A stretch of 64,000 bases of DNA from Candidatus Norongarragalinales archaeon (GCA_038884755.1 JAWABJ010000001.1:636953-700952); one strand, 5' to 3'. Counted from the first letter of the stretch, positions 3,548-53,028 are shown. Made by a program: numbers and translations. Notes: generated from the sequence alone by a model not told the origin.

Positions 3548-4108
3548 GTGAATGCTATTCAGACCATGAACGGAATACTCGAAGTGAATTTGAAAGCCAT
3601 AGCCTTCAGCCTAGCAATTCTCGCGGCGCCGTTCTTTCTCCTGAAGCTCGAAGGAAAGAAAAACTTCAGGAAAGAACTTTTGCTGGGAAAGCTGAACTGG
3701 GCTAAAACACTCTTTCAAGGCTTGAAGCTCTTCGCCGTAACGTTCTTCATCCTCGTCCTCCAGGGCATCATCCTGAACCTGCTCGGGCTTTTGGACAACG
3801 AGATTGTCGTTGAAATCATAACCGCCCAGGAACCCCTCGCGCTACTCATGGCAGTAACAATAGGACCCATAGGAGAAGAACTGCTTTTTCGGGGGTACCT
3901 GCTCAAGCGCATGGGCGTGGTATTGCAAGCCGTCCTCTTCGCCCTGTTCCACTACGGCTACGCCAGCATCTCTGAAATCCTCGCGGCGCTGGCTGTAGGC
4001 GTGCTCCTGGGGCTTTACGTAAAGAAAAACAAGGACATCTACTCGGCCATAGCTGCACACTCGTTCTACAACATTTTTTCAATAACGCTCGTTTTGTTTT
4101 ACGTTTGA
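3548..4108 (+). CDS. CPBP-family intramembrane metalloprotease (CAAX protease-like)
   Basis: Multi-TM protein with EELLFRG and FHYGY/HSFYN motifs characteristic of CPBP/Abi family. Confidence 0.65.
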   Translation: MNAIQTMNGILEVNLKAIAFSLAILAAPFFLLKLEGKKNFRKELLLGKLNWAKTLFQGLKLFAVTFFILVLQGIILNLLGLLDNEIVVEIITAQEPLALLMAVTIGPIGEELLFRGYLLKRMGVVLQAVLFALFHYGYASISEILAALAVGVLLGLYVKKNKDIYSAIAAHSFYNIFSITLVLFYV

Positions 4109-15297: not shown

Positions 15298-15417
15298 CGT
15301 TTAGCGCCCTATCAGTGATGATTAAAAGCCGCTTAGAAAAACTAGGCGCGAGAGGCTTAAAAACTCTTTTGAAAAGCAAAGGGTTTTTCTTGATTGGCAT
15401 GGAAGATTATTGTTCAA

Positions 15418-15587
15418 GCAGGGGTAGCGAAGCCTGGTCAAGAACCTTTTTGCTCTCGCAAAAAGCTTCACCAAAAACGCGACAGGTTCAGGGCCTGTTC
15501 TCTCAGGAGTTCGAGGGTTCAAATTGAGCAAAGCGCTGGCTTTGCAACGTTTCACTCGCTTTGCTCGTGAAACTCCCTCCCCCTGCA
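15418..15587 (+). tRNA. tRNA-Leu (CAG) with two non-canonical introns (D-loop hairpin intron ~15442-15472; 50-nt intron between T-loop and T-stem 3' strand, 15525-15574)
   Basis: Exons closely parallel the intronless tRNA-Leu(UAG) at 52704-52788: GCAGGGGTAGCG..., anticodon stem ACAGG/CCTGT loop TTCAGGG, long variable arm TCTCTCAGGAGTTC, T-arm GAGGG-TTCAAAT-[intron]-CCCTC, acceptor CCCCTGC+A; T-arm intron is a perfect 10-bp hairpin GAGCAAAGCG/CGCTTTGCTC. Confidence 0.7.
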
Positions 15588-17894: not shown

Positions 17895-19193
17895 TCAAGG
17901 CGTCAGCCTGTTCCTGTCGCGCGGGAACAAAGCGCACTCGCGAATATTACTGCGATTAGCAAGCTTCATGCAAAAACGCTCGGCGCCGATGCTCCAGCCT
18001 GCGTGCGGAACCGCGCCGTATCGAAACGCGTTGACATACCACTCGAAATCCGCCGGCTTGAGGTTTCGGGCTTTCAACTGCGCTACAAGCGTGTCGGGAT
18101 CATGTATTCTCTGCGCGCCGCTCGCTATTTCCAATCCTTTGAAAACCAAATCGTAAGATTTGCATACTTTCGGGTTTTCTTCCAAAGGCATTGCGTAGAA
18201 CGCGCGGGAAAGCGTGGGCCACCGGATTGTGAAAAACGCGTCAGCTCCGAGAATCTTCGGAAGCTGGGAATCGGCTTCTTTAGGAATGTCTTGGCCCCAG
18301 TCCACTTTGAACCCTTTCTTGTCGAGTTTTTCCAAAACCTCGTCGTAAGTGAAGCGCGGAACTTCCTTCGGAATTTCGTACTCCGCGTCCAAAAGCTTCA
18401 ATTGCGCGGCGCAGTTTTTCTTGACGCTCTTCAAAACGTGCAAAAAGAATTCTTCCAAGTAATCGAGCGCCTTGAAATCGTCTATGAAAGCGCATTCGAT
18501 ATCCATCTGAGTGCTTTCGTTCAAATGCACGGTCGTATTGTGCTTTTCAGCTCTGAAAACGGGAACAGTCATGAACACTCGCGTCATTCCGCCCAACACG
18601 GCCAGTTGTTTGTAAAGCTGCGGGCTTTGAGCCAGGAAAGCTTTCTTTTCAAAATATTTAACCTCAAAAACGTCCGTCCCGCCTTCACTCGCGCTTTCCA
18701 AAAGCGTCGGGGGGTTTATTTCCTGGAAGCCCAGTTCAATAGCTTTTTCGCGGAACGCCTTTTGCAATTCCGCGCGGATTTTGAAAGTAGCCTGGGTTTC
18801 CAAACGCCTCAAGTCCACGGAACGGTTGTCCAAACGCACGTCAATGTCTGCAGGAACTTTGCCCGTCAATTCGAACGGGACTTGTTTTACAACTTTCCCC
18901 AGGATTTCGATTTTCGAAGGCGAGATTTCGCACCCGAAGGCGGAAACGCCCGGGTTTTTCTTTACCGTGCCTTCGACGAAAACGCTTGTTTCCTTCACCA
19001 GAGTTTCGGCTGCCTTGGCGAGTTCGGGTTGTTCGATTTTTTTTATCGTCACCTGCGCCAAGCCGCCTTTCTCGCGAAGCACCAGGAACAAGAGTTTTCC
19101 CACGTCGCGCTTTTCGTGCACCCAACCCGCAACTCGCACGCGCTTTCCGTCGAGCTCGGGGGTTATTTGGGACAAGGAGTGAGTCAATTCCAT
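17895..19193 (-). CDS. aspS: aspartyl-tRNA synthetase, archaeal type
   Basis: N-terminal OB anticodon-binding domain, class II motifs 1-3 (FRAE, GAxRxxD-like ending FPRDRNRLTP); 432 aa. Confidence 0.9.
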   Translation of the reverse strand: MELTHSLSQITPELDGKRVRVAGWVHEKRDVGKLLFLVLREKGGLAQVTIKKIEQPELAKAAETLVKETSVFVEGTVKKNPGVSAFGCEISPSKIEILGKVVKQVPFELTGKVPADIDVRLDNRSVDLRRLETQATFKIRAELQKAFREKAIELGFQEINPPTLLESASEGGTDVFEVKYFEKKAFLAQSPQLYKQLAVLGGMTRVFMTVPVFRAEKHNTTVHLNESTQMDIECAFIDDFKALDYLEEFFLHVLKSVKKNCAAQLKLLDAEYEIPKEVPRFTYDEVLEKLDKKGFKVDWGQDIPKEADSQLPKILGADAFFTIRWPTLSRAFYAMPLEENPKVCKSYDLVFKGLEIASGAQRIHDPDTLVAQLKARNLKPADFEWYVNAFRYGAVPHAGWSIGAERFCMKLANRSNIRECALFPRDRNRLTP

Positions 19194-19247: not shown

Positions 19248-19379
19248 TGGGGGATCTGAGATTCGAAGTCCGGAGCTTTTCTTTCTTTTCCAAGGTTTTC
19301 TTTCTTTCGCAAAGAAAGAAAAGCTTCTCAGGTCGCCAGCTCCCAAAGCTGGCAGGATACCAGGCTACCCCAATCCCCC
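19248..19379 (-). tRNA. tRNA-Pro (UGG) with ~59-nt intron inserted between T-stem 5' strand and T-loop (19268-19326)
   Basis: Minus-strand fold: acceptor GGGGGAT/ATCCCCC+A, D GGGT/ATCC, anticodon stem CCAGC/GCTGG loop TTTGGGA (G37), T-stem CTGAG...[intron]...TTCGAAT CTCAG; intron built of TTTCTTTC...GAAAGAAA hairpin repeats. Confidence 0.65.
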
Positions 19380-27490: not shown

Positions 27491-27631
27491 TGCTCCGCCC
27501 GGGATTCGAACCCGGGTTGCTGGCTGTCCATACGGCCTTTCTTTTTTCGTCGAGGTTTTTTCTTTCCGCGAAAGAAAAAAAAAAGGTCGTTTGAAAGGCC
27601 AGCGTCCTGGACCGGACTAGACGAGCGGAGC
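27491..27631 (-). tRNA. tRNA-Glu (UUC) with ~66-nt intron after the anticodon loop
   Basis: Acceptor GCTCCGC/GCGGAGC+A, D GTCT/GGAC, anticodon stem CTGGC/GCCAG loop CTTTCAA, T-arm CCGGG-TTCGAAT-CCCGG; intron contains T10-CTTTC-GCG-GAAAG-A6 hairpin. Confidence 0.8.
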
Positions 27632-29508: not shown

Positions 29509-29598
29509 GCCGGAGTAGCTCAGTTGGTTAGAGCGCTAGACTCATAAGCGCAACGCTGTGAAACCTAGAGGTCGGGTGTTCAATTCTCCCCTCCGGCA
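29509..29598 (+). tRNA. tRNA-Met or tRNA-Ile2 (CAU) elongator-type with ~16-nt intron after anticodon loop
   Basis: Acceptor GCCGGAG/CTCCGGC+A, D GCTC/GAGC, anticodon stem CTAGA/CCTAG (A31:C39 mismatch) loop CTCATAA, intron GCGCAACGCTGTGAAA, T-arm GGGTG-TTCAATT-CTCCC (one U:U). Confidence 0.65.
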
Positions 29599-40589: not shown

Positions 40590-41465
40590 GTGGTTAAGAC
40601 GAAGAAAATGATAAGCAAGTATTTGAATAAGCTCTATGTTAGAGACTGCCTTAGCTTCATGAAAGAGCTACCGGCAGGCAGCATAGACGTTATAGTAACT
40701 TCGCCACCATACAACATAGGCAAAGAGTACACTACCTACAAAGACGATAAAACTAGGATAGAGTATCTCGACTGGATGGAACAAGTAGCTATAGAGAGCA
40801 AACGAGTATTGAAAGAAAACGGCTCGTTCTTTCTTAATGTTGGCGGAAAACCGTCGGACCTTGCTATTCCTTACGATGTTGAAAACCGGTTTAGAAAATA
40901 CTTTGTCTTACAAAACGACATCATTTGGGTTAAATCAATAACAATCACTAAGGAAGATGTCGGCAAGTCTAATGGCTTAAGAAGTGACGTTTCGGTAGGT
41001 CACTATAAGCCGATTCAAAGCAACAGGTTCCTAAACAATTGCCACGAAAACATATTTCATTTTACTAAACATGGCAAAACAGAGGTAGACAAGCTTTCAA
41101 TTGGAGTGCCTTATCAATACAAATCTAACATAGAACGCTGGGGTAAGACAGAAGACAGAAGGGATAGGGGGGATGTTTGGTTTATCCCTTACGAAACGAT
41201 ACAAAGCCACAGACCACACCCGGCTACGTTTCCAGAAAAACTACCGCTAATGTGCATTAAACTACACGGAGTAAAGAAGGACATTGTAGTTTACGATCCA
41301 TTCATGGGAGTTGGAAACACGCCGTTGGCATGCCTAGAATTGGGAGTAAATTATATTGGCACCGACATCGATAAAGGATATGTTGAAATGGCTGAAGAGT
41401 TTATTCGAGAAAAGAAGGCTCAAGCCAGATTAGCTACAAAGCTCGTATCTCTTTCAGAAGAGTAA
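40590..41465 (+). CDS. beta-class DNA N4-cytosine/N6-adenine methyltransferase (SPPY motif; likely m4C)
   Basis: Motif IV VTSPPYN precedes motif I DPFMGVGNT (beta-class order); pfam N6_N4_Mtase-like; low-GC gene. Confidence 0.8.
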   Translation: MVKTKKMISKYLNKLYVRDCLSFMKELPAGSIDVIVTSPPYNIGKEYTTYKDDKTRIEYLDWMEQVAIESKRVLKENGSFFLNVGGKPSDLAIPYDVENRFRKYFVLQNDIIWVKSITITKEDVGKSNGLRSDVSVGHYKPIQSNRFLNNCHENIFHFTKHGKTEVDKLSIGVPYQYKSNIERWGKTEDRRDRGDVWFIPYETIQSHRPHPATFPEKLPLMCIKLHGVKKDIVVYDPFMGVGNTPLACLELGVNYIGTDIDKGYVEMAEEFIREKKAQARLATKLVSLSEE

Positions 41466-41964: not shown

Positions 41965-42924
41965 TTAGCGGACTTTGAATTTACTTTTTATCCCCGCCTG
42001 TTCAAAGTGTTCTTTAAGCGAATCTATAAGAGCTTCAGTCATTGAATTTATTGCCTTGTGGCTAGTCCCCATCGCACCCCATTCACAGTCTGTGGACCAT
42101 TGTTCCGATTTCATTTTTGGAATAATGCGCAAAATCTTTTCAAAGGTTTCAGCGGTTATTTCCTTGTTTGGATCAACATAGTTAAGTACGATGTATCGAA
42201 ATAGCTTATTCATCACAAACACTCCGGTCCGTCTGAACAAAACATATTTTGTGGGCTGGGCATGTGCTTCAGAACAAATGTTTCTTATCGCAATCCAATA
42301 GTGATCTAGCATTTTTTCTAATATTTCGGTTGGCGTTCCTTTTAGATCGGATTTGAATATCGGCTCAAGAGAATCGGTAAATGCCTTTTGATTAATAAAT
42401 GCCCCAGATCTCGGTTCTTCGTTAGCCATCTGGATTCGGGTAGACCACACTTTTGAGGATCTATTTAGATATTCTGCTATTGCTAAAGCGTGCGGCTTCC
42501 AGTCAATACCACTAATTACTTGTTGAGGAAGGTTTGCCTTTGATACCCCGATCGTCCCTCCAAATTCTTCCTTTATATGAGGAAGAAACTGCTCTGCTAG
42601 ATCAGTTGGAACGCCTCGTTGAGTTTTATTCATTATAACAAACTGCAGCATCTCAGTGAACTCGATATTTTTTAGACCAGCGGCTTTAGGATCAACCCAC
42701 AAATTCGGACAGATTATTATTACTGGAAAAGGGTATTCTTCAACTCGTTCATCTCCAGGAGGAAAGGAATCGATGAGTTTTCGAAGACCGGCTATCCTGT
42801 GTTGGCCATCAACTTGCCAAAGTTTCTGATTAGGTGGCAAACGAATTTCGCCAAAACTACCGTTAACTTTCTTGAAGATAGGCGTTTTGTCTCTGGAATA
42901 GGCGCTGACTTTTCTTTTTTTCAC
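41965..42924 (-). CDS. DGQHR-domain protein (DndB-like / ParB-Srx superfamily)
   Basis: Diagnostic motif WQVDGQHRIAGL near N-terminus; 319 aa; 48 nt upstream of the small nuclease gene on the same strand. Confidence 0.6.
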   Translation of the reverse strand: MKKRKVSAYSRDKTPIFKKVNGSFGEIRLPPNQKLWQVDGQHRIAGLRKLIDSFPPGDERVEEYPFPVIIICPNLWVDPKAAGLKNIEFTEMLQFVIMNKTQRGVPTDLAEQFLPHIKEEFGGTIGVSKANLPQQVISGIDWKPHALAIAEYLNRSSKVWSTRIQMANEEPRSGAFINQKAFTDSLEPIFKSDLKGTPTEILEKMLDHYWIAIRNICSEAHAQPTKYVLFRRTGVFVMNKLFRYIVLNYVDPNKEITAETFEKILRIIPKMKSEQWSTDCEWGAMGTSHKAINSMTEALIDSLKEHFEQAGIKSKFKVR

Positions 42925-43273: not shown

Positions 43274-43975
43274 TTATCGATCCTTCCCTTCAAGCGGCCA
43301 AACAATCCTAAAAGATGCAACCGAACTGTCTATGTCGCCTCTTCTAGAACGCTTAAGCAATTCAAAACGAAACACTTTATCCGGATGAGCCGAATCAAAA
43401 CAATCGTAAAACTTCAACACTTGCTCGCTCCCGTGAACCATCAACGCAAACATTTGCGTTTGGCTTCCTTTCTTAACGTACGGCCCGCAAACGCGTCCGC
43501 AGCGAACTCCGAATTCGGAAACGATTTCCTTTATTTCGCCCAGAACACCCTGGTTGGCTTGAGCCAAATAAACCCGAATGTCCTTTTCAGGAATGTTCAA
43601 AGTCGTTTTCTCGAAGGAATTAACGCTTCCCTCCGCATCGAAAAAACCCCGGACGTAAGCCGCCTTAAGTTCTCCAGAGCCTTTTGAAATCCACGTTGGG
43701 GTTAGCCAAGTGGATTGGTCTCCGTTGAATTCAGCGAACTTCGAAAGTTCTTGAAAAACTTTCTTGGAAGTAATGCTCAAACACCAAACGCCATGCCGCT
43801 CGTCGAAGTAAAAGCTAGCGTTCTTGCCGAAATTCCTTTCGAGAATTCCGGCCAAAAGCTCGAGCCATCGTTTGCTCTTTTGGTAAAACCCGATTCGATA
43901 AATGCCTTGTTCAGGAATGCTCGTGATGTTTCCATCACGCAAGGCTCCGATCAAGTAAGCGATTTCTTCATTCAC
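43274..43975 (-). CDS. double-motif LAGLIDADG homing endonuclease (GTG start assumed at 43975; last 19 codons run past the 3' splice site into exon 2)
   Basis: Motifs LIGALRDGN and GFFDAEGSV; ORF-track N-terminal 78 codons (43976-44209) are translated 23S exon/intron-5' sequence and rejected. Confidence 0.7.
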   Translation of the reverse strand: MNEEIAYLIGALRDGNITSIPEQGIYRIGFYQKSKRWLELLAGILERNFGKNASFYFDERHGVWCLSITSKKVFQELSKFAEFNGDQSTWLTPTWISKGSGELKAAYVRGFFDAEGSVNSFEKTTLNIPEKDIRVYLAQANQGVLGEIKEIVSEFGVRCGRVCGPYVKKGSQTQMFALMVHGSEQVLKFYDCFDSAHPDKVFRFELLKRSRRGDIDSSVASFRIVWPLEGKDR

Positions 43976-44070
43976 GATTAATCCGAAATCTTCCTCTGCT
44001 TTTAAATCTTGAGAGAGTGGCTTTCCAGTGCTTCCAGTGAATTGCCTATGATTGTGCGTTCTAAAAGAGG
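43331..44070 (-). mobile_element. archaeal (bulge-helix-bulge type) intron in 23S at the I-CreI-like site (E. coli ~2593), carrying a LAGLIDADG ORF
   Basis: Splits AACGUCGCGA|GACAGUUCGG; intron termini CCUCUUUUAGAACGC...GCGUUCUAGAAGAGG are complementary (long terminal helix typical of archaeal rRNA introns); no group I core elements. Confidence 0.7.
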
Positions 44071-44191
44071 TCGCGACGTTCTGAACCCAACTAACGTAGG
44101 TCTTTAATGGATGAACAACCCAACCCTTGGTGGCTCCTGCACCACCAGGATGACCTGAGCCGATAGCGATGTACCAAACCGCGGTGTCGAT

Positions 44192-44393
44192 TTGTCCTTT
44201 GCAGAACAATCTTTCCCGCCCCCTACGCGTTGAGCGTCAGAGTTCAAACCGGTCACTAACATCTTTTGCGAGAGATTACCTAAACCTAACCAGCATGGAT
44301 GCCAGTGTCGGTTTAAACGAAGACTGATCGCTCAAAACACGGGGTTGAAAAAGAAAGTTCCATTCGCCTTTCAAATGAAAGAAAGGGGAAAAA
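44192..44393 (-). mobile_element. ~200-nt insertion in 23S between GAGAGUUCAU and AUCGACACCGCGG (E. coli ~2500 site); ORF-less, type undetermined
   Basis: Flanking exon sequences align to conserved domain V; insert lacks group I R/S elements; contains CCUUUC...GAAAGG hairpin. Confidence 0.5.
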
Positions 44394-44517
44394 ATGAACT
44401 CTCAACCGCGACGAGCCTGTTACCCCCGGGGTAGCTTGTCTGTCAGAATGAGCCCTCATTAAAAGGGCATCATTGTTCGTTAAGCCCTGCTTTCGCACCT
44501 GCGACCCATAAAACAGA

Positions 44518-44555
44518 TTTTTCTTTACTTGATTTTTCTTTCGTAAAGAAAAATC
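44518..44555. repeat. hairpin-repeat insertion in 23S: UUUUUCUUUACUUGAUUUUUCUUUCGUAAAGAAAAAUC
   Basis: Near-identical (35/38) to copy in 16S at 49958-49997. Confidence 0.7.
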
Positions 44556-44984
44556 ATTTGTTAAGATCACAGTCAATCCAGCATTTGTCTTTGACCCTCT
44601 ACAACGCATTTCTAACGCGTCTGAGCTGAATATTGGGCGCCTTTGTTATCTTTTCGAAGGCGTGCCGCCCCAGCCAAACCACCCACCTGCAGCTGTCTTT
44701 CTTTCGAAATGAGCAATGCAGTCGAAAAATAGCAGTGTCACACTTTCGCCTATCGCACTCCCGGAAGAGTGCGCTTGACGGCTCCTGCTTACGCTTTGAT
44801 TCTCCAACCGAATTACAACAACAGGCTGTGGTTAAGCTCCACGGGGTCTTCGTTTCCCTTTAGGATTCCTCGGCATGTTCACCGAGAAGTAGGTTCACCA
44901 GGTCCAAGGTAGGGACAGCAAGACAGTCGTTACGCCATTCATGCAAGCCGCCAATTAAGCGGCGAGGTACTACGCTACCTTAAG

Positions 44985-45709
44985 CAACTTTTCGTATGCA
45001 TTTTGCACTGAAAAGCTGGACTATATCTTCACCGTCTTAGGGTGTTCGGCGTATAGTCTCTGAGGATCCTGTCTTTGCGTCCAACTCTTGCATTATTTCA
45101 TCCAAAGTGCTCTTGCGTTGTTTTCCTTCCAAATTCATTCGGAAGGCCAAGCGCACGAGTTTTTTGAACGAGTCAAGGTCGGAATGCTCTTTTCTTTCTA
45201 ACGCTTCAACAATTTCCTTGAACAGAAGAAAGTCTTTCTCTTTCGAGACAAGCGGATACTTGTCGAAAAAAGGAATTACTTTCTCCGCCAACTGCCTTCG
45301 GTTGTCTACAACGAACTGCATTAATTCCGGTTGACCGTGTTTTTCCACGACCCTTCCGCAAGAAAGCCTGCTTCGGAATAAATCCAAAACCGCTTGTCCT
45401 TGCTTGTGTTGGGTTACGTGAAAAACCGGGTCTAAAACCAACCCGAATTTTGCAGTGTCTTCTTGTTTTAAAGACACGTTGAAACAACCTTCAGCGTCGG
45501 CGAATCCGCTCAAGAAAAAATCGGCGTTTCTTCCTTTCGTGAGTTTACTCAACCCAGCCATAGGCAACCACCTTTTTGGTTCTTTTAAAATTACAGTTTC
45601 CTGCTGATAGCATTCAACGTTTCAAGCTCTTTTCCTTACTCAGGGTCTTGAAACTCCCGCGTTCCAGCATACAGCCGAATTTAGCGACTCCCTTTAACTT
45701 GATTGCTCA
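44985..45709 (-). mobile_element. group I-like intron in 23S (E. coli ~1917 site) carrying LAGLIDADG ORF
   Basis: 5' exon ends ...GACUCU (U at -1) pairing with internal guide GGGAGUC (U:G at splice site); P-like AACGCGGGAG, Q-like UAUCAGCAGG, R-like CAGAGACUAUACG, S element AAGAUAUAGUCC (exact consensus), P9 hairpin, terminal G; ligated exons restore ..UAACUCUGACUCU|CUUAAGGUAGCG. Confidence 0.7.
45037..45567 (-). CDS. single-motif LAGLIDADG homing endonuclease (TTG/ATG start), encoded from P6 region through P7/P8 of the group I intron
   Basis: LSGFADAEGCF motif; 176 aa; R element encoded as ...SETIRR..., stop codon in P8 loop. Confidence 0.75.
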   Translation of the reverse strand: MPMAGLSKLTKGRNADFFLSGFADAEGCFNVSLKQEDTAKFGLVLDPVFHVTQHKQGQAVLDLFRSRLSCGRVVEKHGQPELMQFVVDNRRQLAEKVIPFFDKYPLVSKEKDFLLFKEIVEALERKEHSDLDSFKKLVRLAFRMNLEGKQRKSTLDEIMQELDAKTGSSETIRRTP

Positions 45710-46023
45710 AGAGTCAGAGTTACTCCCGCTCTTTGCCAGTCCTTTGCTCCCTTGAAAAGGAGTTTGAGATACTGGTAGTGAGCAGGCGTCAACCATCGTA
45801 CTCAACCTTTCGGTTTTGCGATGATTTGTGTTTTTGATAAACAGTCGCTGTCTCCTTGCCACTGCGACCTACAAACCCCCAATCGACAAAGTCTATGGAA
45901 GAATGTAGGCAGCCCTTCTTCCGAAGTTACGGGCCTAGATTGCCGAATTCCCTTACCATGGTTCTCCTGCCACGCCTTGGCTTGCTCTGCCAGGACCACC
46001 TTTCAGTAAAAAATTTCTTTGGG

Positions 46024-46063
46024 TTTTCTTTACTGAATTTTTCTTTTCCCAAAAGAAAAATTC
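46024..46063. repeat. hairpin-repeat insertion in 23S: UUUUCUUUACUGAAUUUUUCUUUUCCCAAAAGAAAAAUUC
   Basis: Shares UUUCUUUACU-N-AAUUUUUCUUU...AAAGAAAAAUU module with 44518 and 49958 copies. Confidence 0.65.
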
Positions 46064-47920
46064 TTGTACTGGTTCTGGGTACGGACACTCGAGATCACTC
46101 CCGCTCCATTTTCACGGACTCTAGGATTCAGCCCAACCCCCTTGCGGAGGCCATTCCCAGCTTCAACGAGTGCTCCTCATTACGAGACTTCCCCGTTGTA
46201 TTCAAGTTAACAACGATGCGCGTTGTGGGCCTATCCCTAAGCGTTTGGATGCGGGCTTGCGTTGCCGCACTTACTCAAGTGGTACGCGAATGTTAACGCG
46301 TTTCCCTTTCGACATCACTGTCGTTTAGTCTTAGGACCGACTTACTCTTGGTCGACTAACGTTGCCAAGAAACCCTTAGTCCTTTCGGCGTCCAGGATTC
46401 ACACCTGGAATAGTTGCTACTAGCACCAAGATCTTCATTGCAATCCGCTCCACAAGACCTCACGGCCTTGCTTCTGCGCGAACTGCACGCCCCTCTACTA
46501 AATCACGCTCAACAAAGCGTGTTCTGAAGTATCGGCGAACTGCTTAGTCCCGAGAGTTTACAACGCTCCAGTCCTTGATGGGTCCGCTGTTACGCGTTGT
46601 TTAAAGGATGGCAGCTTCTGTTCCTACCTCCCCACTGTCTGAGAACCGAAACGTCTTGAAGAACACTCAGCAGTTTCTTAGGGGCCTTAACTCCAGTAAG
46701 CGTCTTTACGCCCTCGCCGCACGCGCTTAACTCATGCGGCCAACTCCTGTCTTCTACAACGTCGTTAGCTTCGGAGTTTGATAGCAAAGTGAGGGCTTTC
46801 GCCCCCGTGCTTCGCAATCGGTAGCTCTACCTAACGACAATCTCCAACAGGGCTGAACTGCGGTTCACTTCGAAGGGAACCCGCTATCGCCAAGCTCGAA
46901 TGCACTTTCATCCCTAAACGCGAGTCACCCAAGAGGCTAGACCATCACTGGTTTCGGGCTTCCACCACCCTGAAGGGCGGCTTCACCCTGCTCACGCTTA
47001 GATCGCTTTGGCTTCGGGTCTCACGAGAGTGACTTGACGCCGGTTAAGACGTTCTCCCTCGCACCTTGCGGTGTTGCGGAGTTTTCGCTTTCGCTATGCA
47101 CAATGCTTGCCACTCTCGTGAACTCCTTGGCTCTTGCTTCAAGAAGTACGACACGACCCCGTGCCCTCTTCGGGCCTTTCGGGCCGAGTCTTCATGTCGC
47201 CTTACAATTTCAGGCACTTTTAACGCCGCTTTCGCGGTGCTTTTCAGTTTTCCCTCACGGTACTGAATTCGCTATCGGTCTTGAGTTGTATTTTAGGGTT
47301 GCAAGTTAATACTCGCGTTTTCACACAGCCAATCCAGGCTATGCTACTCTGGAATTCCTCCCATCCCCTTTCGGTTCGCTTACACGGCTTTCACGTTCTA
47401 AAGCGGCATTTTCCAATGCCCTTCAGCTCTCGATCGGGGATTAAAAGAAGGAACCCAAACTCCACATTTCTACTCTCTTTGCAGAGAGGATTCGGTTTGC
47501 CCTGATGCGCTTTCGTTCGCACTAATCACGCAATCCCTATTGGTTTCTCTTCCTCCGCTTACTAAGATATTTCAATTCAGCGGGTGTGCGCTCTTTCCAG
47601 AGCATTCGGGAACCTTGGGTTCAAAGCCTGCATGCGGCTACCCCAAGCTTTTCGCAGCTTGCCACGCCCTTCGTCGCCACTCAAGCCAAACCATCCACTG
47701 TAAGGCTTTGCAACAACTACTCCTCGATAAACCTGCACAGCTTCATGAAAATATGCACTCTTGCGAGTGCATTAAATCAGCACTTCGAATTCAAACGCCC
47801 GTGCAAGGGGTCTTGCTTTGAATTCTGTTTTCTTCGCCCGCAAACCGTTTTGAGGCGGTCAGCGGACACACGCATTTTCCTGTGATTTCCGCGCTCCGGT
47901 TTTTTCCGGCGGTTTTTCTT

Positions 47921-47977
47921 TTTTTGCTTTTCTTTCTTTACTTAATTTTTTCTTTCTTTCGCAAAAAGAAAGAAAGG
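47921..47977. repeat. TTTCTTTC...GAAAGAAA hairpin repeat copy in the 16S-23S spacer (UUUUUUCUUUCUUUCGCAAAAAGAAAGAAAGG)
   Basis: Perfect palindromic stem; member of family also at 44518-44555, 46024-46063, 49958-49997, 33777-33801, and inside tRNA introns at 19268-19326, 19917-20031, 20051-20190, 27541-27585. Confidence 0.7.
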
Positions 47978-47981
47978 TTAG

Positions 47982-48053
47982 TGGACTCGGTGGGATTTGA
48001 ACCCACGGCCTCCTGCTTGCAAAGCAGGCGCGCTGCCACTGCGCCACGAGCCC
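47982..48053 (-). tRNA. tRNA-Ala (UGC) in the 16S-23S spacer
   Basis: Acceptor GGGCUCG/CGAGUCC with G3:U70 identity pair, anticodon loop UUUGCAA, T-arm GUGGG-UUCAAAU-CCCAC; classic archaeal ITS tRNA. Confidence 0.85.
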
Positions 48054-48274: not shown

Positions 48275-48490
48275 CATGTAGTTCCACATGTCGCCATGCG
48301 GCATGGACTATATCATCATCTCAATTTCTTGAGCGTCTGCGTGTAGTCTCTGAGGGGTCAATCATTTTCATGACGACTTCCCTGCTGATAGACCCCACCT
48401 GAACCGTTGCCGGTTCAGGATACACGGGTTGTTCCAGCATACAGCAGATTTTGTCTGCATCCTCGCGGATGCAGGTCGCAACATAAGTTT
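48275..48490 (-). mobile_element. 216-nt ORF-less group I intron near 16S 3' end (between GUCGU and AACAAGGUAACC; E. coli ~1506 site)
   Basis: U at -1 with IGS GCGAC pairing exon GUCGU (U:G); P2 CUGCAUCC/GGAUGCAG, P5 CUGAACCG-GCAA-CGGUUCAG, Q-like UAUCAGCAGG, R CAGAGACUACACG, P8 CUCAAGAAAUUGAG, S GAUGAUAUAGUCC, P9 CCAUGCCGCAUGG, terminal G; core elements near-identical to the 23S L1917 intron. Confidence 0.7.
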
Positions 48491-49031
48491 ACGACTTAAC
48501 CCTCCTCATGAAGATCTAGCTCGAATGCGACCGAAGTCGCAGCCTCACTAAAACCTCACTTGGATGGCTTGACGGGCGGTGTGTGCAAGGAGCGGGGACA
48601 TATTCACCGCGCGATGATGACACGCGATTACTAGGGATTCCAACTTCATGGGGGCGAGTTTCAGCCCCCAATCTGTACTGGAGTAGGGTTTAGGTGATTG
48701 CCTCCGCCTTTCGGCGTCGGAACACATTGTCCCTACTATTGTATGCCACGTGTGGCCCAGCAGATTCAGGCCATACGGACCTAGCGTCGCCTTCTCCTTC
48801 CTCCCACTTAACGCGGGCAGTCTCCACAGAGTGCCCTCCGAATTGCTTCGAAGGTAGCAACTGTGGACGAAGATCTCGCTCGTTGCACGACTTAACGTGA
48901 CACCTCACGGCACGAGCTGGCGCTGGCCATGCAACACTTCTCGGCTTGTTGGCTAAGATCTTTAGTCTGAGCTTCATACTGCCGTCTCTGCTGGTGAGTT
49001 TCCCGGCGTTGAGTCCAATTGAACCGCAGCA

Positions 49032-49719
<688 letters not shown>

Positions 49720-49957
49720 TCCTTTAAGTTTCAATCTTGCGATCGTACTCCCCAAGCGGCAGACTAAACGTTTTCACTACGGCACTGCAGCAACGCGAAG
49801 TCGCTGCAACGCCAAGTCTGCATCATTTACTGCACAGGACTACTCGGGTATCTAATCCGATTCGCTACCCTGGCCTTCGTTCCTCACCGTCAGACGTGTT
49901 TTGTCCAAGCGCTTTCGCCACCGATGGTCCTCTAAGGATTACAGGATTGTAAGCACA

Positions 49958-49997
49958 GTTTTTCTTTACTCAATTTTTCTTTCGTAAAGAAAAATTG
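49958..49997. repeat. hairpin-repeat insertion in 16S (within the ~720 region): UUUUUCUUUACUCAAUUUUUCUUUCGUAAAGAAAAAUUG
   Basis: Interrupts conserved GGGGUGAAAUCCUGUAAUCC context; near-identical to 23S copy. Confidence 0.7.
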
Positions 49998-51054
49998 TTT
50001 TACTCCTCCCCCTAAAGTACCCTTGGACTCCCCCACTCTCAAGCTCGGTAGTATTCCCTGCACGCCCATCCGTTGAGCGGATGGATTTCACAGGAAACTT
50101 GCCAAGCCGGCTACGGACGCTTTAAGCTCAATATTCGTGGATACCACTAGTTCTACCTGTGTTACCGCGGCGGCTGGCACAGGATTTACCCAGAACTTAT
50201 TCCACCGGCTATTCAAGCCGGTTAAAAGCCGACCTTTCGATCGGCACTCGGACTACCCCCATCACGCTTTCGCGCATTGTGGAATTTTCGCGCCTGCTGC
50301 ATCCCGTAGGACTCGGGCCCTTGTCTCAGTGCCCGTCTCGGGGCTCCTACTCCCATAGCCCCTACTGATTATAGGTTTGGTGGGCCGTTACCTCACCAAC
50401 AGCCTAATCAGCCGCAGTGCCATCTTACAGCAAACTTGCTCCAATTCGCTTTTTTTTCAACCGCCAACCGTTCCAGGTACGGCGGCCTATGGCGTGTTAC
50501 CCGCACTTTCGCGCGGTTATTCGCCTCTGTAAGGTAGGTTCACTACGTGTTACTGAGCCGTTTGCCGGGATTACAAGTGTAATCCCCAAACTTGCATGGC
50601 TTAGTCGTAATCCGATAGCAGTATCCTCCAGCAGGATCAACTGGTGTTGTCCTAACACCCGATTCGGGTGTTAGGACGGAGATCGCAAGAACTAACTTAT
50701 CTTGCGGAATGAGCGTCTTGCATAGAGTTATTTGCTCTCTTCTTCCCCTGCGTCGAACCCAAATGAGAATCGCTTGCCATCAGAGATGGAAGAACATAAT
50801 TCTTTGTTTGAGTGCCCATGATCGCTGTAGTAGTAAAAATAGCAACGCCAGTCATGGATTCACGCAGAGGCGAAAAACGCGATAGCAAGGCGTTTCTACG
50901 CTCTCAGATAAAGTCTTCTATGGCTTGCCGGGAACTACAGCATTAGAAAAAACACTCTTTCCGAAGAAAGAATGCCTTTATTAAATCGTCGAAAGGAGTT
51001 TAAAAAGCTTTTGAATCAACCGCGGGATGTAGCGCTTTGCAAGCGAAACAAATA

Positions 51055-52703: not shown

Positions 52704-52788
52704 TGCAGGGGGAGAGATTTGAACTCCCGAACCCCTAAGGGAGCGGGTCCTAAACCCGCCGCGTTTGACCAAGCTCCGCCACCCCTGC
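52704..52788 (-). tRNA. tRNA-Leu (UAG), intronless, long variable arm
   Basis: Acceptor GCAGGGG/CCCCUGC+A, anticodon stem GCGGG/CCCGC loop UUUAGGA, variable arm UCCCUUAGGGGUUC, T-arm GGGAG-UUCAAAU-CUCUC. Confidence 0.85.
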
Positions 52789-53028
52789 GCGAAAATAATC
52801 TGTTTGAGAGGGAATTTAATTGCGAAAGGCGGCGTGCGGGTGAAAAGGCTCAGCCGCGTTTGACAAATCGCCTGAGAATCCAGGTCTTCACCTTGTCCAA
52901 AACTGGCTTTTGCTGAACTTGTTTTGAGCTTCGCTCGGAGTTTCGAAAATTTTTGAGACCTGTGAAACCAGCGCTCTTGGCTTCAAAAGGTTTCTTTCGG
53001 GATTTCAAAGGCTCTTGCGTCAAGCGGT

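Follow-up and report, generated by a model that had tools for sequence, protein, structure and literature searches.

The described tRNA gene sets closest to the one reported here are those of ARMAN-2 and of the Thermoproteales. In ARMAN-2 (Ca. Micrarchaeum acidiphilum), disrupted genes make up 56% of the tRNA set (Fujishima et al. 2011, PMC3239211). Its tRNA-Pro(GGG) carries introns at positions 53/54 and 59/60, its tRNA-Cys(GCA) has a relaxed hBH intron at 59/60, and its three-unit ε2 splicing endonuclease (EndA) cuts strict as well as relaxed motifs in vitro (PMC3239211). ARMAN-1 and ARMAN-2 are both among the archaea recorded with multi-intron tRNAs (PMC4033280), and efficient cutting of relaxed motifs has been attributed only to (αβ)2 and ε2 enzymes (PMC6379350). 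For the Thermoproteales (Crenarchaeota), PMC4090602 and PMC4033280 describe up to three introns per tRNA, many non-canonical positions and relaxed BHB motifs, and near-identical introns at different positions and in different tRNAs were read as transposition (Fujishima 2010, cited in PMC4090602).

Here we describe tRNA genes in a 64,000-nt stretch of DNA, referred to throughout as the window. The window is archaeal, as Rfam identifies archaeal LSU and SSU rRNAs and an archaeal RNase P within it. Its AspRS gene (17895-19193, minus strand) has its closest relatives in Micrarchaeota MAGs at 82-89% identity, with 89% for locus L001 (labelled Ca. Norongarragalinales), 88% for L002 and 82% for L003. 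Judged by these relationships, the host is a Norongarragalinales-like member of the Micrarchaeota (DPANN). Norongarragalinales has been placed as sister to all other Micrarchaeia (PMC8561730), and two genomics papers on this order mention neither tRNA introns nor the splicing endonuclease.

The window resembles ARMAN-2 in phylum, in the intron positions 59/60 (tRNA-Leu) and 53/54 (tRNA-Pro), in having two introns in one tRNA, in mixing strict hBHBh′ with relaxed motifs, and in the disruption of about half of its tRNA genes. It differs in that the host belongs to a Norongarragalinales-like order of neutral groundwater or soil type, with rRNA of ~50% GC. The doubly interrupted tRNA is a class II tRNA-Leu with one intron in the D-loop (20b/21), whereas both introns of ARMAN-2 tRNA-Pro(GGG) lie in the T-loop, and the ε2 enzyme was shown in ARMAN-2, no endA gene having been found in the window. 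With the Thermoproteales, the window and its relatives share a transposition-type intron pattern (Sugahara 2008 and Fujishima 2010, cited in PMC4090602 and PMC4033280). In contrast to those hyperthermophilic Thermoproteota with an (αβ)2 EndA, the window’s host is a mesophilic-type DPANN archaeon, and its introns are A/U-rich and built from a pyrimidine arm and a purine arm.

A layout of two introns at unusual sites is already described for the Micrarchaeota, and the accepted picture of archaeal tRNA splicing is unchanged by what follows. Disruption at the ARMAN-2 positions (53/54 and 59/60), together with the D-loop, is now also found in an order sister to the other Micrarchaeia, which modestly extends its phylogenetic range. 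It can be argued from this that the trait, and presumably a broad-specificity endonuclease with it, is old or widespread in the phylum.

A tRNA-Leu(CAG) gene with insertions in the D-loop and T-loop

Direct reading of the sequence places the tRNA-Leu(CAG) gene at 15418-15587 on the plus strand, a length of 170 nt. The acceptor halves are GCAGGGG and CCCCUGC, the latter followed by discriminator A73, and CCA is not encoded. U8, a D-stem of GCG/CGC and G18G19 are all present, as are an anticodon arm (ACAGG-UU-CAG-GG-CCUGU), a long variable arm and a T-arm (GAGGG-UUCAAAU-CCCUC). Exon 1 (15418-15440, 23 nt) comprises the acceptor 5′ strand, the D-stem 5′ strand and the D-loop as far as A20b; within it, TGGT (15435-15438) supplies the exon side of the central helix described below, and C15439 and A15440 are the first two bulge nucleotides. 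Intron 1 (15441-15475, 35 nt) interrupts the D-loop at 20b/21. Exon 2 (15476-15523, 48 nt) holds A21-A22, the D-stem 3′ strand CGC (15478-15480), the anticodon arm with CAG at 15489-15491, the long variable arm, the T-stem 5′ strand GAGGG (15513-15517) and T-loop residues UUCAAA. Intron 2 (15524-15573, 50 nt) interrupts the T-loop at 59/60, and exon 3 (15574-15587, 14 nt) supplies U60, the T-stem 3′ strand CCCUC, the acceptor 3′ strand CCCCUGC and A73. All of these features lie on the plus strand, and both introns were delimited by intronless orthologs, folding and the register test given below.

Without 15441-15475 (35 nt) and 15524-15573 (50 nt), the gene gives an 85-nt RNA that ARAGORN calls tRNA-Leu(cag). 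The product is a complete cloverleaf, colinear with intronless orthologs (L003, L139 and others), and it has the same length as these orthologs in related genomes and as the intronless tRNA-Leu(UAG) in the window. That gene had been proposed as the intronless comparator, a role that its 85-nt length bears out; it lies at 52704-52788 on the minus strand, a correction to the original prediction. The 85-nt product and the intronless orthologs also confirm the earlier placement of a tRNA-Leu(CAG) with D-loop and T-loop insertions at 15418-15587. The tRNA-Leu(CAG) with its two non-canonical introns is a genuine gene.

The unspliced gene is called neither by ARAGORN (default and intron modes) nor by Rfam (gathering threshold over the window; E ≤ 10 on a 300-nt region). 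When one intron is removed, ARAGORN miscalls the gene as tRNA-Arg(gcg), taking the D-loop intron for an anticodon intron.

Splice motifs at the two insertions

In a canonical intron at 37/38, nucleotides 32-35 pair with the intron and the 3′ bulge ends in its third base, nucleotide 38. The register that we used has exon 1 and the intron each end in four central-helix bases followed by two bulge bases. Among the sequence-equivalent placements of each tRNA-Leu(CAG) junction, a single register gave four of four central pairs, and this held for each of the two introns. The original prediction had staked its case on BHB motifs forming at these junctions: a strict motif forms at the T-loop and a relaxed one at the D-loop, and their formation at both sites supports the view that the two insertions are BHB-type introns of the archaeal kind, located away from the canonical position.

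The T-loop intron (15524-15573) forms a strict hBHBh′ motif at 59/60. Its lower helix is the 5-bp T-stem (GAGGG/CCCUC), its central helix pairs UUCA (15518-15521; U54-A57) with UGAA (15568-15571) at all four positions, its bulges (AA|U and AC|U) are 3 nt each, and its upper helix joins 15525-15535 to 15557-15567 over 11 bp. This is the strongest BHB geometry across the whole window and a textbook hBHBh′, as in canonical 37/38 introns. The window’s tRNA-Leu introns share with those canonical introns (Marck & Grosjean 2003) a 3-4-3 geometry and a cut after the second bulge nucleotide; unlike them, they lie outside the anticodon loop, and the exon strand of their central helix is T-loop or D-loop sequence. 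The insertion had been described as a 50-nt perfect hairpin, of which the length stands, the helix being 11 bp including a U-G pair. It had also been placed at 60/61, which becomes 59/60 by the BHB cleavage rule; the two placements give the same product because there is a U on both sides.

The whole precursor folds more stably than shuffled sequences (z = -3.55). Calculated over that precursor, the fold containing the T-loop BHB has an energy of -67.3 kcal/mol against -67.7 kcal/mol for the minimum-energy fold, a gap of 0.4. The minimum-energy fold uses a competing internal hairpin in the T-loop intron, marginally more stable than the BHB, which is possible because the intron has two GCUUUGC copies, either of which can pair with GCAAAGC. 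The centroid fold includes the long upper helix of this intron.

The D-loop intron (15441-15475) is 35 nt long and not, as first proposed, 31 nt. It is laid out as A, GAA, C, a CUUUUUGC-UCUC-GCAAAAAG hairpin, C, UUC, ACCA and AA, the 8-bp hairpin of CUUUUUGC with GCAAAAAG being extended by GAA/UUC. Exon UGGU (15435-15438; positions 17a-20) pairs with intron ACCA (15470-15473) as a central helix with all four pairs. A 3-nt bulge (CA|A) contains the 5′ site, and beyond it come GAA/UUC, one C.C mismatch and then the 8-bp hairpin; the 3′ site is found in an internal loop of 5x4 nucleotides, AAGCC facing AAAA, that the D-stem GCG/CGC closes. The register test accordingly returned four of four central pairs, an upper helix of 3 bp and no lower helix; with no lower helix adjoining the 3′ site, the intron falls outside the strict hBHBh′ class. 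A canonical 5′ site combined with a 3′ site in a loop makes this a relaxed bulge-helix-loop (BHL or HBh′-like) motif, and the minimum-energy fold of the D-arm is this proposed splice motif itself. Its position, 20b/21, is given in Sprinzl-style numbering. The view that such positions require a relaxed-specificity endonuclease therefore applies to the D-loop intron with its relaxed motif and not to the T-loop intron with its strict BHB.

A window-wide scan for BHB geometry returned 39-40 strong sites per strand (minimum lengths 5 bp for the upper and 4 bp for the lower helix, G-U pairs allowed) against 11-14 in block shuffles. Strong sites are frequent by chance, and we rejected the scan as stand-alone evidence. 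Because BHB-like geometry is so common by chance, the motif is persuasive only alongside comparative data; in our reading, the decisive evidence for the tRNA-Leu(CAG) introns is comparative rather than geometric.

Intron content of orthologous tRNA-Leu(CAG) loci

Scanning metagenomes with the conserved 5′ exon of tRNA-Leu(CAG) yielded 80 loci. The 170-nt gene in the window combines a 35-nt D-loop intron at 20b/21 with a 50-nt T-loop intron at 59/60. A D-loop intron without a T-loop intron is present in L091 (gene of 120 nt; the window’s own intron, with 33 of 35 bases identical), L097 (123 nt; intron of 37 nt), L125 (133 nt; intron of 48 nt, different from that of the window) and L159 (118 nt; intron of 33 nt). 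L146 (132 nt) has the opposite arrangement, a 47-nt T-loop intron at 59/60 and none in the D-loop. The gene is intronless in L003, L083, L139 and L155, where it measures 85 nt, and in L103, L117 and L160, where it measures 86 nt.

The gene order SecD-SecF-tRNA-Leu...AspRS-tRNA-Pro is common to the window, L003, L125 and L146, and L091 has the SecF flank in common with the window, showing that these loci are orthologous and differ in intron content. At the SecF-adjacent tRNA-Leu(CAG), introns are thus absent in L003, confined to the D-loop in L091 and L125, confined to the T-loop in L146, and present at both sites in the window. The syntenic locus carries a tRNA-Leu(CAG) gene in every relative examined. 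The intronless 85-nt gene of L003, located beside SecDF, is identical to the spliced window gene at 69 of 85 positions. It is identical to the window exons across both intron junctions, including 27 nt across the D-loop junction, and the anticodon stems of the two genes differ by compensatory changes.

Every independent intron in this set has a four-of-four central helix in the required register, and the intron 4-mers involved are all different. In the D-loop, where a 4-mer close to the 3′ end of each intron matches the invariant exon sequence, these helices are ACCA/UGGU (window and L091), GGCC/GGUC (L097), GGCU/GGUC (L125) and CCAG/CUGG (L159); if each register has a probability of ~0.02 and 2-4 registers are permitted, all four D-loop matches together would be expected by chance at ~1e-5. 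In the T-loop, UUCA/UGAA in the window corresponds to UUCG/CGAA in L146, with both strands changed. Between the window and L091, identity is 94% (33/35) in the D-loop intron, 86% (73/85) in the exons and 68% in the flanking SecF DNA, and the differences within the intron are confined to the tetraloop, leaving the stems preserved. The 50-nt T-loop intron sequence has no homolog in 1.9 Mb of related loci.

Similar introns at different tRNA sites

Sequence similarity also links introns inserted at different sites. The 53/54 intron of the window’s tRNA-Pro is clearly homologous to the D-loop intron of tRNA-Leu(CAG) in L125 (38 of 44 aligned bases, z = 6.9-8.1) and the D-loop intron of a tRNA-Val(CAC) in L149 (z = 8.2), and more weakly resembles the anticodon-loop introns of the window’s tRNA-Glu and of tRNA-Leu(CAA) in L133. 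The Leu D-loop intron of L091 resembles the Leu T-loop intron of L146 (z = 7.6-8.4), as does the window’s D-loop intron. All of these pairs beat 300 dinucleotide shuffles, and the pairs given a second test scored above 500 randomisations with an unchanged purine/pyrimidine pattern: none of the 500 reached the observed score for the tRNA-Pro intron against L125, for the same intron against L149, or for L091 against L146.

A hairpin clearly homologous to the tRNA-Pro intron also occurs outside tRNA genes. This copy (CUUUCUUUCUUUUUGCGAAAGAAAGAAAA...AAAGAAAGAAAAGC; 47931-47985, minus strand) lies in the 16S-23S spacer, 5 nt downstream of tRNA-Ala, and scores 62 against 25.4 for the null that preserves the purine/pyrimidine pattern, which none of 500 randomisations reached. 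This element may function as a signal for processing, or be what is left of a mobile intron. One intron family thus spans a tRNA-Pro 53/54 site, a tRNA-Leu D-loop, a tRNA-Val D-loop and an rRNA-spacer site, and a second is found in the D-loop of tRNA-Leu in one genome but in its T-loop in a different genome.

That intron families recur in different tRNAs and at different positions suggests that introns move in this lineage; the introns of tRNA-Leu(CAG) are evolutionarily labile and probably mobile. We lean, by a slight margin of confidence, towards the stronger proposition that BHB introns move actively within this DPANN lineage of mesophiles and that the tRNA-Leu(CAG) locus gained or lost its D- and T-loop introns. 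If that is true, large-scale tRNA-intron transposition, documented so far for the Thermoproteales, extends to DPANN archaea, and the locus offers very recent insertion or deletion events from which the transposition mechanism might be deduced. The literature that we searched contains no description of tRNA-intron transposition in DPANN archaea, which is no proof of novelty. The intron mosaic and the cross-site families together provide material for studying how BHB introns move.

At 3585-3636 (minus strand) in L149, a metagenomic relative, a tRNA-Val(CAC) has a D-loop intron of ~55 nt that in-silico splicing confirmed and that belongs to the tRNA-Pro 53/54 family. Its junctions can be placed in two ways, giving a mature tRNA of 72 or 74 nt, both of which fit the BHB rule.

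Many introns share a three-arm design in which one 5′ arm is followed by two direct copies of its complement. Such introns lie at 19268-19326 (minus), 27526-27591 (minus) and 15524-15573 (plus) in the window and also occur in L125, L133 and L149. The design allows an intron to fold either as a short internal hairpin or with the long upper helix of the BHB, and it may be a structural switch or a footprint of the introns’ origin.

Proposed splicing and the probable type of endonuclease

The results above establish the tRNA-Leu(CAG) gene, its exact intron boundaries and its ability to form splice motifs at both of them. We consider it very probable that this is a functional Micrarchaeota tRNA-Leu(CAG) gene interrupted by two protein-spliced BHB-type introns; cleavage itself we infer. 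In the proposed pathway, the gene would be transcribed as a precursor of ~170 nt. In the T-loop, U54-A57 would form base pairs with the UGAA shortly before the intron’s 3′ end, with the T-stem below and the 11-bp intron helix above, an arrangement predicted to yield the canonical series of 3-nt bulge, 4-bp helix and 3-nt bulge. In the D-loop, exon UGGU and intron ACCA would pair, placing the 5′ site in the CAA bulge under the intron hairpin and the 3′ site in the internal loop that the D-stem closes. On each strand, the archaeal splicing endonuclease would then cut behind the second bulge nucleotide, and an RNA ligase would join the exons into the 85-nt class II tRNA.

By analogy with the phylum, the enzyme is most likely one of broad specificity, an ε2 type as in ARMAN-2. 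No endA gene was found by Pfam among ~50 ORFs of the window, or by six-frame tblastn over the window and 187 related loci (1.9 Mb). For tblastn we used EndA of M. jannaschii and of S. tokodaii together with fragments of ARMAN-2 EndA; the M. jannaschii sequence is identical to PDB 1A79 over residues 9-179, and the other two were read from alignments. The introns may instead be genuine BHB introns that are cut by an enzyme other than ε2, such as an (αβ)2 type, a Korarchaeum-like α2 with a specificity loop, or an undescribed type. The position of Norongarragalinales as sister to all other Micrarchaeia (PMC8561730), and hence distant from ARMAN-2, speaks for this, as does the variation of enzyme type within the ARMAN groups, ARMAN-4 and -5 being without ε2 (PMC3239211). 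We nonetheless think it rather unlikely, given that ε2 is the sole broad-specificity type so far reported in the Micrarchaeota (PMC3239211, PMC6379350) and that the 53/54 and 59/60 positions match those of ARMAN-2.

A further explanation holds that tRNA-Leu(CAG) is a pseudogene, inactivated by two hairpin-bearing elements, mobile or repetitive, that stay in the transcript. The inserted hairpin families do occur outside tRNAs, as in the rRNA spacer at 47931-47985, and standard tRNA finders leave the locus uncalled. This explanation is nevertheless very improbable, as the exons are intact and match intronless orthologs at the junctions, and both insertions sit precisely where a 4-bp exon-intron helix gives the endonuclease its register. 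The D-loop intron, moreover, persists in L091 with its stems preserved despite 68% flanking identity and compensatory exon changes, tRNA-Leu(CAG) is found at the syntenic locus in every relative examined, and half of the window’s tRNA genes bear introns, as in ARMAN-2 (PMC3239211).

A third reading, in which the two segments are group I or II self-splicing introns or house a guide RNA (box C/D, for example), can be dismissed with near certainty: group I introns do exist in the window’s rRNA operon and in Micrarchaeota rRNA (PMC6125680), and one weak Rfam snoRNA-like match (E = 3.6) overlaps the 3′ end of the gene, but 35 and 50 nt are far below the size of a ribozyme core (at least ~200 nt), and the Rfam search at E ≤ 10 gave only chance-level snoRNA or miRNA matches, none better than E = 1. 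A box C/D guide was also rejected on motif grounds, neither intron containing a pair of C (RUGAUGA) and D (CUGA) boxes.

Other tRNA genes in the window

Standard annotation of the window gives five tRNAs by ARAGORN and six by Rfam. A SPLITS-like single-splice scan, in which 38,981 BHB-like candidates were spliced in silico and passed to ARAGORN, added only tRNA-Leu(CAG) and tRNA-Pro(UGG), bringing the window to eight tRNA genes. The tRNAs for Lys, Gln, Ala and Leu(UAG) are intronless, and the other four of the eight bear introns: tRNA-Leu(CAG) with two, tRNA-Pro with one at 53/54, and tRNA-Glu and a CAU tRNA with one each in the anticodon loop. The defaults of ARAGORN and Rfam thus overlook two of the eight tRNA genes. 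Since default finders miss such genes, tRNA counts for Micrarchaeota MAGs are likely underestimates where BHB-aware tools are not used.

The tRNA-Pro(UGG) gene (19248-19379) carries a 59-nt intron (19268-19326) at 53/54. The original prediction of an intron at this position is upheld by intronless tRNA-Pro genes in L001, L002 and L125, which are contiguous there, with the addition that the gene is on the minus strand. These intronless genes are tRNA-Pro(CGG) and lie upstream of AspRS, the same position as that of the window’s tRNA-Pro. The BHB of the tRNA-Pro(UGG) intron has an upper helix of 15 bp, a central helix with three of four pairs (one U.C mismatch) and a lower helix of 3 bp. The tRNA-Glu(UUC) gene (27491-27631, minus strand) has a 66-nt anticodon-loop intron (27526-27591) of the same hairpin type, with a pyrimidine arm and a purine arm, as the window’s other introns. 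The tRNA with a CAU anticodon (Met or Ile2; 29509-29598, plus strand) has a 16-nt anticodon-loop intron (29547-29562). ARAGORN names this gene tRNA-Glu(ctc) by default and a CAU tRNA when introns are allowed, a misannotation caused by the intron.

Both tRNA-Leu genes have a AGATTATT motif 5-8 nt upstream of position 1, at 15403-15410 (plus) for Leu(CAG) and 52794-52801 (minus) for Leu(UAG). Gene duplication might have left it behind, or it may serve both genes as a leader or promoter-proximal element.

The rRNA operon and neighbouring genes

Both large rRNA genes of the window exceed their Rfam models, the LSU rRNA (44036-47722, minus strand) being 3687 nt long against a model of 2987 and the SSU rRNA (48443-50647, minus strand) 2205 nt against 1478. 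LAGLIDADG endonuclease ORFs lie within them, at 45037-45567 (minus) in the LSU and 49061-49645 (minus) in the SSU; the excess length and the internal ORFs together indicate several introns in the rRNA genes. Rfam also identifies a group I intron at 48284-48500 (minus; 51.8 bits, E = 3e-10) that overlaps the 3′ end of the SSU rRNA, a match that fits the SSU/1498 group I introns reported in Micrarchaeota (Nawrocki et al. 2018, PMC6125680). An ORF of 311 aa with a LAGLIDADG_3 domain (43274-44209, minus strand) has its start within the 3′-terminal part of the LSU rRNA match and extends past it. This ORF could encode a free-standing homing endonuclease, or belong to an intron at the LSU 3′ end that was skipped by the Rfam alignment. 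An N6/N4 DNA methylase is encoded at 40590-41465 (plus), and the adjoining ORF at 41965-42924 (minus) is weakly DndB-like (E = 2e-4, below the Pfam cut-off); the two, next to the rRNA operon, may be partners in a defence system based on restriction-modification or DNA modification.
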